Source: Eremomyces bilateralis CBS 781.70 (taxonomy: Eukaryota). From it: a stretch of DNA of 64,000 nucleotides. How positions within the stretch are numbered: position 1 is the stretch's first letter; every line of letters starts with the position of its first letter. Made by a program: the position numbers and the translations under genes. The DNA lies in NCBI GenBank assembly GCA_010015585.1, contig ML975151.1. One strand, given 5' to 3'. Below the pieces are notes generated by a model. That model had not been told where the DNA came from. It worked only from the letters and a program-made list of their open reading frames with translations, and ran no database searches. Positions 58,502 through 60,248 of this stretch are shown piece after piece.

Positions 58502-58540
58502 GTCCACCGATTAAGTCCACCGATTAAGTCCACCGATTAC
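58502..58540. repeat. 13-bp tandem repeat x3 (GTCCACCGATTAA)
   Basis: gtccaccgattaa gtccaccgattaa gtccaccgattac in a divergent promoter region. Confidence 0.85.
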
Positions 58541-59153
58541 CGCTCATGCGCGATGCAGCCATGACAGATGCACCCATGACGTACTGAAGGCAGCGCATGG
58601 AGAAATCAGCAGAAGAGGAGTCACTGCTTGACGGTGGATCAAAACTTTAAAACATCGGACTCCGCGCCAGTAACTAATAACCTGTTTTCTTCTCTCCAAG
58701 GCGTGTCAAGTGTGTGGAATCGGGGTCAACTCCAGGGTCAATAATGAACCAAAACCCCAGGGCCTAGACCCCGACCTCGAAATAAACTTGATTCTCGGCG
58801 CCGCTTGCATGGATAACCCCTAACTAGTTAGTTAGTGGTTCCCGTTTCGGTTAAGTATGCCTCTACCTTCCAGCAACGTCATCGTGAGACTAGCCTTGGT
58901 TTTTATGTTGGTCGCATATCTATAGGTATAAGGTAACCGAATGACGCATATTCTTCTACTGAGAAACCAAACCTACTGCTTGACTTCTCGAGTTTCACTG
59001 ACCATTACACCAATCACAAACCGCGGCTATTAACCGCAAAAGATCCGATTCCGCCGTCTCCATGTCTCAAGAGTATGTCACAATTTAGCTCGCGATACGC
59101 ATTGACTAACAGATACATTCTCCAGAGACGCCAAAAAGGACCCCACCGAGGTG

Positions 59154-59598
59154 ATGGAGCGGACAGAATCAGAGGAAAGTCCTGTTCCCAGCTCGAAGGA
59201 GCGCACGAAGCAGCGCACGAAAGAGAGCACGAAAACCAGTCGGGCGCTCCAACGGCAGAAGCAAGCCTACGACGACGACGAAGACTCGGAATTGGAGGAG
59301 TTCTTGGCGCCGCCGCCGCGAAAGAACCGACGGATGATTCCGGTTCACCAGTCTCGAATTTCCGACCGGCCCATTAAGAAAGGCGCCGAAGATAGTAGTT
59401 TGAAGATTAAGATCGAGCTGGACTTGGAAGTTGAGGTAAGTAGTGTTCTACTGCCTGGCATTTCGTCCCCTCAAATCTTATGAAATACAGGTAGAGATTT
59501 ACGCTCGCGTCAAAGGAGATGTGACCATCGGGCTGATGTAATGGCAGCTCGAGCTCTATGCTAGGGTGAAGGGGGACGTCACCATCGGTTTACTGTAA
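59154..59598 (+). CDS. Small hydrophilic protein with C-terminal LKIKIELDLEVE..YARVKGDVTIGL motif and two alternative last exons
   Basis: Donor GTAAGT at 59436. Exon A spans 59491-59541 and exon B 59548-59598. The true start may be ATG 59062 if the A5 run at 59133-59137 carries one extra base. Confidence 0.75.
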
Positions 59599-59882
59599 GA
59601 GGTTAGTTGGTCATTTCGCTTTTGAACAGAGGAATAATATTCATTTTCAGGACCGAATGATTTGTGTTATTCGCTATCCCGGGGGTCACTCATTAGGCGG
59701 TTGTCATTTTGAAAGAGGGCATGGAGTATTGTAGAGAGATAGGGTTTCCAATTCAAGCAATTGTGTGAAGGATGTATCTAGCCACACGACTCAAAGCGAG
59801 TTCTGTGTTTGTTGCGAATAGCTTTATATTGTCTTAATTGTCGTAATTGAAAGTCTCGTTGCTACTTTCCCTATCTAGTGCA

Positions 59883-60248
59883 CTAATCTTCCTCCATCTC
59901 AGCCATCTCAAGCTCCAATTGCTGCTTCTTCAGCGCTCTCAGCTTCTTCTGCTTCTTGGCTTGAGCTTCCGCTTCGCTTCCCCCCTCCGATTTCTGAACC
60001 TGTTGCTTGCCTCCACCGGAACCGACAACCGGTAATCCGTCAGTTGTCTCTCCCACGGTCTTGAGAACTGGCGACGTCACTCCGCCTACGACAGGGAGAT
60101 CCTTGGTCGTATTATCTACGGTATCCAAAACGCTAAACATACGAAGTCAGTCGAAGTCAGTCGTAGAGGAGATGGAGATTTACCCTCCGAGAAGGCCACC
60201 GTTGCCGCCTTTCTTCCCGCCACCGCCACCTCCGAGTAGTCCTGCCAT
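59883..60248 (-). CDS. Small Gly/Val-rich protein
   Basis: MAGLLGGGGGGKKGGNGGLLGG|VLDTVDNTTKDLPVVGGVTSPVLKTVGETTDGLPVVG...KKQQLELEMAEMEED*. One intron (about 60183-60133). Confidence 0.75.

Follow-up and report, generated by a model that had tools for sequence, protein, structure and literature searches.

Why should a small fungal gene end in two copies of its last coding unit, 6 nt apart, that specify almost the same residues? The question is raised by a gene on the plus strand of contig ML975151.1 (NCBI GenBank assembly GCA_010015585.1) of Eremomyces bilateralis CBS 781.70, within a stretch of 64,000 nucleotides that is referred to here as the window and whose positions are used throughout. 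An initial annotation, made from the letters of the window alone, had described the pair at 59491-59598 as a duplicated 3'-terminal exon. It took the pair to be an old duplication kept for alternative 3' splice choice or readthrough, giving two variants of a C-terminal motif. We find that both 3' splice sites are used in Eremomyces and that the pair is conserved in related loci with a coding-type substitution pattern in each unit. We consider it probable that the duplication included the stop codon, that the pair is read through two forms of splicing and that the two copies have since locked each other in place.

The two units, A (59491-59541) and B (59548-59598), are each 51 nt long with the stop codon included, are each preceded by CAG and are separated by the 6 nt TGGCAG (59542-59547). 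Read in one frame, 59491-59598 translates to VEIYARVKGDVTIGLM, a stop, WQLELYARVKGDVTIGLL and a second stop, with WQ standing between stop A and LELYARVKGDVTIGLL. Codon by codon, 13 of the 16 residues are identical, 9 of these 13 shared codons differ synonymously and the replacements are V/L, I/L and M/L. The Nei-Gojobori count gives 16 differences over 48 nt, made up of 12.0 synonymous changes on 12.3 sites and 4.0 non-synonymous changes on 35.7 sites. The global alignment of A with B scores 19 against -8.2 +/- 3.7 for shuffled sequences (z 7.3), and none of 2000 shuffles scores as high. This likeness is beyond chance, and A and B are two adjacent coding units of common origin. The GTAAGT donor at 59436, the GCTGAT inside the Gly-Leu-Met codons of A (59532-59537), the CTTAT at 59477-59481 and the common frame of A and B across TAA-TGG-CAG are likewise present, so that what the initial annotation reported seeing in the window is confirmed in every detail.

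RNA evidence for the pair comes from one public run of one organism, here called X1, in which 70% of the sampled locus words are present. The library type of X1 is unrecorded; it is taken as cDNA because its contigs lack four GT..AG introns, each of them exactly removed. The raw joints 59433 to 59489, 59433 to 59546 and 59599 to 59649 are read with the cut two places to the right, which gives GT..AG. A contig of 477 nt and depth 215.4 spans 58906-59435 minus intron 1 and ends at the donor. From this donor, one contig of 115 nt (depth 128.5) joins 59435 to 59491, the first base of unit A, and another of 58 nt (depth 90.7) joins 59435 to 59548, the first base of unit B. The two junction depths add up to approximately the depth of the shared upstream contig, as expected of a fork in an assembly graph, which suggests that A and B are used at about 59:41 in this sample, an approximate ratio given that contig depth is a coarse measure. 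At the fourth joint, the stretch 59602-59650 is spliced out as an intron of the 3' untranslated region (UTR). Both 3' splice sites are thus used in Eremomyces, at comparable depth, and the alternative splice choice proposed by the initial annotation is borne out.

The host gene of both units is small: exon 1, intron 1 and exon 2 are followed by the donor and then by A and B. Because exon 2 ends on a complete codon, either unit joins it in frame. With ending B, the product matches, at 100% identity, a hypothetical protein of 123 aa from Eremomyces bilateralis CBS 781.70, and the deposited model (P0002) accordingly has the B-type C-terminus ...LDLEVELELYARVKGDVTIGLL; the A-type ending is present in a close relative (P0003). 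With coordinates refined by the RNA contigs of X1, the parts of the gene are as follows.

58906..59061, plus strand: 5' UTR, up to the start of the RNA contig (first X1 contig record, 58906 to 59435 across intron 1).
59062..59072, plus strand: coding part of exon 1, M S Q and two bases of E (ATG at 59062; the spliced product is P0002, which starts MSQEDAKK).
59073..59125, plus strand: intron 1, 53 nt, GT..AG (joint 59072 to 59126, X1 contig of depth 215.4).
59126..59435, plus strand: exon 2, a disordered N-terminal part and then the conserved ...RRMIPVHQSRISDRP...SSLKIKIELDLEVE (translation P0001; 38 relatives, 20 invariant columns).
59436..59490, plus strand: short form of intron 2, 55 nt, from the GTAAGT donor to acceptor A (second X1 record, 115 nt, depth 128.5).
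59436..59547, plus strand: long form of intron 2, 112 nt, from the same donor to acceptor B (third X1 record, 58 nt, depth 90.7).
59491..59541, plus strand: terminal coding unit A, VEIYARVKGDVTIGLM and stop, intronic if acceptor B is used (translation; X1 joint).
59533..59537, plus strand: candidate branch point CTGAT for acceptor B, in the Leu-Met codons of A (sequence; branch A 11 nt before the intron end).
59542..59547, plus strand: spacer TGGCAG with the acceptor of unit B (sequence; X1 joint).
59548..59598, plus strand: terminal coding unit B, LELYARVKGDVTIGLL and stop, the ending of the deposited gene model (translation; X1 joint).
59602..59650, plus strand: 3' UTR intron, 49 nt, GTTAGT..CAG (fourth X1 record; 3 nt past stop B and 60 nt past stop A).

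The pair extends well beyond Eremomyces. Relatives' loci were drawn from metagenome contigs, in which 87 of 421 pattern matches encode relatives; the best 80 of these 87 were analysed and are cited by number where needed. Both units are found in 72 of the 80 loci and a single unit in seven (L001, L002, L053, L057-L059 and L061), with L080 unclassified. The 72 loci consist of 61 recognised by a 13-residue pattern together with L036, L041-L047, in which each unit is split by an intron of its own, L048, in which the second unit is cut by the contig end, and L056 and L063, in which the second unit is split by an intron. Wherever both units end intact (61 of 61 pattern loci and the extra loci), the first ends in ...GLM-stop and the second in ...GLL-stop, with the exception of L037, whose slightly altered second unit ends in ...GSL. 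The unspliced gene calls of closer relatives (P0007, P0009 and P0031) also contain both units, in shifted frame. A second data set, X2, from a relative and of unrecorded RNA or DNA type, provides one contig in which unit A is followed by a second unit that starts 13 nt past its stop; it serves solely as evidence of the tandem in that relative.

The nearest named proteins of two-copy loci belong to Paraphoma (L026, 89%), Aureobasidium (L007, 86%), Pseudogymnoascus (L052, 88%) and Hyaloscypha (L079, 94%). Judged by best protein match, which is the only basis of the taxon labels of metagenome loci, the pair is present in at least Dothideomycetes-like and Leotiomycetes-like genomes. The Dothideomycetes and Leotiomycetes lineages parted hundreds of millions of years ago. 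The presence of the pair in 72 of 80 related loci and the saturation of synonymous sites between A and B agree with the old duplication that had been proposed. The notion of two variants fares less well: the term overstates the difference, since in most relatives the two products are told apart by their final residue alone (Met or Leu), with position 12 differing as well in some cases.

Selection was analysed in 47 unique two-copy segments, the window included. Between loci, the proportions of synonymous (pS) and non-synonymous (pN) differences are 0.713 and 0.034 for A and 0.699 and 0.036 for B, that is a pN/pS of 0.047 for A and 0.051 for B. Variability at the first, second and third codon positions is 0.075, 0.016 and 0.368 in A and 0.108, 0.005 and 0.354 in B. 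The purifying selection on both copies that the initial annotation had read from a single locus is therefore found across the family, with pN/pS about 0.05 in each unit. Compared with each other within a locus, A and B show a pS of 0.738 and a pN of 0.059. Since this synonymous divergence is about as large as that between loci, recent gene conversion does not account for the likeness of A and B, and a separate protein-level constraint acts on each unit. Furthermore, translation of B requires its splicing to the upstream exon, so that the conservation of B is indirect evidence of splicing in the relatives.

These data bear on another reading, namely that only one unit matters and that the junction of the other is splicing noise, this other unit being a decaying leftover of a duplication or an assembly artefact. 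Such a reading would suit the deposited model, which uses B only, and most gene calls in relatives, which use A only. Both junction contigs are nevertheless deep (128.5 and 90.7), each unit shows coding-type conservation over the 47 unique loci, and a visible change of B is confined to L037 among the 72 loci with both units, L048 being cut by the contig end. With this substitution pattern and two deep junction contigs, a decaying leftover is excluded, and we regard noise in general as very improbable.

Readthrough of stop A into B, which would give a protein with two repeats, had been offered as another use of the pair, B being in frame with A across TAA-TGG-CAG in the window. Across the 47 unique loci, however, only 12 keep A and B in the same frame, the other two frame classes having 19 and 16, and in many loci a second stop follows directly after A; in the X2 relative the second unit lies 13 nt past the stop. 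In X1, B is reached by direct splicing. As a conserved mechanism, readthrough is rejected on the frame counts and the frequent second stops, and we give it next to no credence as an explanation of the pair.

The arrangement seen in the window, with an exon A behind an intron, is not the usual one, and the usual one, with A as the presumed body of an intron, could not be seen from the window alone. In 39 unique loci, no intron separates unit A from the upstream exon and A stands directly after ...LDLEVE, which is why most gene callers give the ending ...GLM. The first codon of A is GTA in all 39 of these contiguous loci, in each of them directly preceded by GAG. GTA opens B in 2 of the 39 and serves for the Val two positions upstream of A in 1 of the 39 (Fisher 6e-20 for A against B and 3e-21 for A against the neighbouring Val codon, values that are overstated for 39 related loci). 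The Asp codon at the second residue is GAT in 12 of 12 cases for A and 2 of 11 for B. Directly before B stands TAG in 28 and CAG in 11 of the 39 loci.

At its other end, A carries a second signal inside its codons. Its Leu-Met codons read CTGATG in 27, TTGATG in 17 and TTAATG in 3 loci, that is YTRATG in 47 of 47 unique two-copy loci; none of the 47 Leu-Leu endings of B has this form. The branch-point form YTRAY thereby comes to lie in A about 10-25 nt before the acceptor AG of B, and A's YTRAY is probably used as the branch point for that acceptor. In the 39 contiguous loci, the period from A to B is 56-91 nt. Introns of 56-91 nt are of ordinary length in fungi. The simplest reading of the relatives would be that A and the spacer form an intron, with the GAG-GTA boundary as its 5' splice site and B as the exon that replaces A, and the predicted spliced product then equals the unspliced one save for the last residue and sometimes also position 12. 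On these codon patterns, A looks like a coding intron made by tandem duplication.

Other layouts of the pair exist. The window, L056 and L060 have a separate intron with a strong donor upstream of A, and A and B are alternative acceptors; because the donor sits in this upstream intron, A needs no GTA there. The first codon of A is indeed GTG in L056, L060 and L001, behind the upstream intron. In L039 and L040, A starts with GTC and contains a GTATGC donor at a distance of 8 nt from its start; B is without the first three codons. Loci with the donor elsewhere (L039/L040, L056, L060 and L001) do not retain GTA. In L064-L073, three codons of the unit are followed by a long intron, and two acceptors, spaced 52-57 nt, lead to shortened units. 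Among single-copy loci, L053 has a GTC first codon and ends in GLL-stop, and looks as it would after intron loss; L057-L059 and L061 have a GTG or GTT first codon and end in GLM-stop, and look as they would after loss of B.

In L041-L048 (for example L041, 1686-1906), each unit is interrupted by an intron, in both cases between the Gly and Asp codons of ...KGD.... The paired introns are 57 and 50 nt long and show no evident likeness when their sequences are read; they would fit a duplication that included an intron or a later parallel change. As a separate matter, the idea that the upstream intron of the window is a decayed third copy finds no support, the similarity not being significant: 59436-59490 aligned globally with unit A and the spacer gives z 1.86 (p 0.056), and local alignments in four lineages give p 0.26, 0.99, 0.21 and 0.026.

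We propose the following account of the locus. The last 16 codons, the stop codon and a few bases of a small Pezizomycotina gene would have been duplicated in tandem long ago, and both copies would have stayed translatable since. In Eremomyces, one strong donor (59436) serves either of two acceptors 57 nt apart: joined to A, the message would encode ...VEIYARVKGDVTIGLM and leave B in the 3' UTR; joined to B, it would lose A as part of the intron and encode ...LELYARVKGDVTIGLL. In most relatives, the GTA of A would act as the 5' splice site, the Leu-Met codons of A as the branch point and the YAG before B as the acceptor, so that A and its spacer would make up an intron of 50-91 nt. Retention of this intron would lead to the stop of A and the ending ...GLM, its removal to the stop of B and the ending ...GLL. 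Both RNA forms would encode nearly the same protein because the duplicated piece holds the stop codon.

Persistence of the pair would follow from mutual lock-in. Provided that A and B are each used by a substantial fraction of the messages, a lesion in either would yield a defective protein; purifying selection would then hold both, and neither could decay. Since the unspliced form encodes a normal protein, poor splicing would carry no cost, and the intronic copy would remain under selection as long as splicing is incomplete. Escape would be possible only by a clean deletion or by a complete shift in splicing, outcomes that the few single-copy loci resemble.

Several points weigh against this account. 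A single data set from one organism supplies the RNA support, and the cDNA nature of that set is itself an inference. In the contiguous loci, splicing would have to occur at GTAGAG, GTAGAA or GTAGAT, and the RNA that speaks for splicing is from Eremomyces only. By the fungal consensus GTRWGT, all three are poor donors. The Fisher values overstate the significance of the GTA bias because the loci are phylogenetically non-independent. Translation of both forms is presumed from sequence. The duplication need not have had a single origin: the introns found at the same place in both units of L041-L048 fit independent duplication or later turnover. Finally, the pair has been kept through at least five exon-intron layouts, which could mean that it is useful in itself, something that lock-in in its pure form does not predict.

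One such use could lie in the control of the message. The choice between A and B would then set the fate of the mRNA through nonsense-mediated decay (NMD), and so the level of protein, silently for the protein sequence; the back-up copy of the C-terminus would exist so that the switch stays silent at the protein level. NMD can be triggered by a junction that lies at least 50 nt past a stop, and in Neurospora crassa the process involves the exon junction complex (PMC6173133, citing Zhang and Sachs 2015). In the window, the 3' UTR intron 59602-59650, spliced in X1, starts 3 nt past stop B and 60 nt past stop A. A consensus donor (GTGAGT or GTTAGT) lies 2-16 nt past stop B in 26 of the 47 unique loci (the window, 24 loci of the VE type and L023), and in these loci stop A lies 58-88 nt upstream of it. 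By its sequence, the 3' UTR intron appears to be conserved in the Dothideomycetes-like group. Stop A thus lies at least 50 nt before the spliced junction in the window (60 nt) and before this candidate donor throughout the 26 loci (58-88 nt), which would make messages ending at stop A sensitive to NMD and spare those ending at stop B, a sensitivity that is a prediction only.

The pair is nonetheless kept in loci that lack such a donor: it is missing from the first 40 nt past stop B in the 20 unique loci that make up the VDLY-type group and type III, and Leotiomycetes-like loci lack it too. Moreover, A is as constrained as B, although messages that are mostly destroyed should leave A under weak selection, and in X1 the A-junction contig is deeper than that of B. 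We therefore consider an expression switch unlikely as the explanation of the pair.

Another use would be two functionally different proteins, with the Met or Leu end, and in the window also V/L and I/L at positions 1 and 3, giving different properties and the pair being kept for the sake of this diversity. The order of Met first and Leu second, which holds wherever both units are intact (61 of 61 and the extra loci), speaks in its favour, as does the survival of the pair through several changes of layout, and PMC9013439 presents tandem exon duplication as a known source of alternative isoforms. In many loci, however, the products differ by one conservative residue only, and single-copy loci and gene calls exist with either ending. 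The Met of A is also demanded by the branch-point-like YTRATG, so that protein-level selection on Met is not required. Among database proteins, the best pairs from one species with GLM and GLL endings are 90-98% alike upstream and never identical, and hence give no direct evidence of two isoforms from one locus. This explanation may hold in part, but we think it quite improbable as the main one. Neither the expression switch nor the two-function reading is exclusive of the lock-in account.

The protein itself belongs to a family of small fungal proteins, every member of which is annotated as hypothetical. Exon 2 as a query returns 38 small related proteins, a query from another branch of the family gives 539 matches, and a profile search finds 283 cluster representatives (50% identity) at E up to 0.001. 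Named members come from the Dothideomycetes (Paraphoma, Aureobasidium, Microthyrium, Rhizodiscina and Paraphaeosphaeria), the Leotiomycetes (Hyaloscypha, Pseudogymnoascus, Lachnellula, Drepanopeziza and others), the Eurotiomycetes (Coccidioides immitis CIMG_07153, an Aspergillus and Myotisia) and the Geoglossomycetes (Trichoglossum). The proteins consist of a variable low-complexity N-terminal part and a near-invariant C-terminal part of 45-50 residues with the motif ...SRI.DRP...SSLKIKIELDLEVEV[ED][IL]YARVKGDVTIGL[ML], always at the very C-terminus; the alignment of relatives has 20 invariant columns.

Searches for a known domain or fold returned little. A Pfam scan of four proteins gave no match above the gathering threshold, and a protein atlas returned only Ascomycota clusters named 'hypothetical protein' (best score 0.88). 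The AlphaFold2 monomer, predicted from an alignment of 59 sequences, contains no helix or strand, at a low mean pLDDT of 58.8 and a pTM of 0.20, and lends no support to the beta-strand-like assembly motif proposed by the initial annotation. Complex prediction with four copies of residues 72-123 produced no answer (score 0.00) and carries no weight either way. Seven of the 18 listed matches of at least 211 aa were read and proved to be N-terminal over-extensions or merges with a neighbouring gene, offering no domain context. Among 129 newly fetched profile matches, none has two units in one reading frame. No publication on the family or on the present arrangement came to light: a literature search with peptide motifs and two locus tags found no papers, and among the papers listed on intron gain by tandem duplication and on fungal tandem exon duplication, none mentions the family in its title or the opening of its abstract.

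Gene models of the family are inconsistent, with GLM ends, GLL ends or reading on into the intron. Calls with errors at the 3' end (P0005-P0010, P0013, P0014, P0016, P0017, P0031, P0172 and P0174) read on into the intron past ...LDLEVEV, retain the intron in frame or merge with the next gene. Pseudogymnoascus strains (P0053, P0112, P0155 and P0172) have two to three diverged paralogues, one type of which ends in ...VGLLE.

Around the gene, three further features were observed. An X1 contig of 1856 nt and depth 28.6 runs from unit B (59546) via the spliced 3' UTR intron past 60000 and across a convergent gene on the minus strand, whose open frame at 59883-60146 extends upstream beyond a likely intron and specifies a product rich in glycine and lysine. 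The two genes may overlap at their 3' ends, a contig over two genes not being proof of a single transcript. Within exon 2, an imperfect tandem repeat of 12 nt (59190-59234, 3.3-3.8 copies) encodes the repetitive KERTKQRTKESTK within the disordered N-terminal part. Some 370 nt before the start of the gene's RNA contig, the 13-nt sequence GTCCACCGATTAA is perfectly repeated in tandem (58502-58539, 2.9 copies), and could be a repeated promoter element.

Introns born by tandem duplication and alternative exons are both already known. The potato RdRp is reportedly a case of an intron that arose from a tandem duplication. The underlying model, in which tandem genomic duplication across AG-GT creates an intron, is reviewed in passages of PMC3443670, and the vertebrate ATP2A1 intron has been re-enacted, with the newborn intron spliced at about 6-16% and the cost of the unspliced form discussed (Hellsten et al., in passages of PMC3265369). 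The present pair resembles these introns in that GT stands at the start of the first repeat and AG before the second, in that the length equals the repeat period and in that removal of one repeat is predicted to leave frame and protein essentially unchanged. It differs from them in that the duplicated piece includes the stop codon, so that the unspliced message also encodes a normal protein, and in that the body of the putative intron has not decayed but is still a translatable copy under purifying selection across fungal classes. Moreover, in the lineage of the window a separate strong donor 55 nt upstream of A has taken over, and splicing of the contiguous form is here deduced from sequence patterns. 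If the account is right, the pair would exemplify in nature a long-lived intron that arose by tandem duplication and that still holds, in its body, a functional copy of the next exon. With the stop codon inside the duplicated piece, inefficient splicing of the young intron would have cost nothing, and the main obstacle to this route of intron gain, as discussed in passages of PMC3265369, would be removed. It would also be a clean case of dual coding, with GTA for the first Val, GAT for Asp and YTR-ATG for Leu-Met.

Alternative homologous exons are described mostly in animals, and the alternative last exons of KRAS4A/4B and exons 3/Ab of U2AF1 are said to be examples. Such exons arise by tandem exon duplication (PMC9013439). 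The present pair shares with them two adjacent conserved coding units of which one is translated per mRNA, with both junctions present in the RNA of the window. The products of the known cases differ clearly, however, whereas those of A and B differ by one to three conservative residues; the upstream unit here is a terminal exon or part of an intron, never a skipped cassette; and its last codons are the likely branch point for the downstream acceptor. If the account holds, this would be conserved alternative splicing in which both alternatives are under protein-level selection and yet give almost the same protein. It would warn against taking conserved alternative coding exons as proof of protein diversity and raise the question whether splice choice controls the message instead of the product.

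A further likeness is to exitrons and retained coding introns, in that an intron with coding potential would lie inside an apparently single exon and be spliced in part of the messages. Exitrons are without stop codons and change the protein by internal deletion, whereas the element described here ends in a stop, has a copy downstream that can take its place and is not preferentially a multiple of 3 nt long. The novelty lies in how these properties are combined: nearly the same protein predicted from both messages, conservation across fungal classes, putative splice signals embedded in codons and survival through changes of exon-intron layout.

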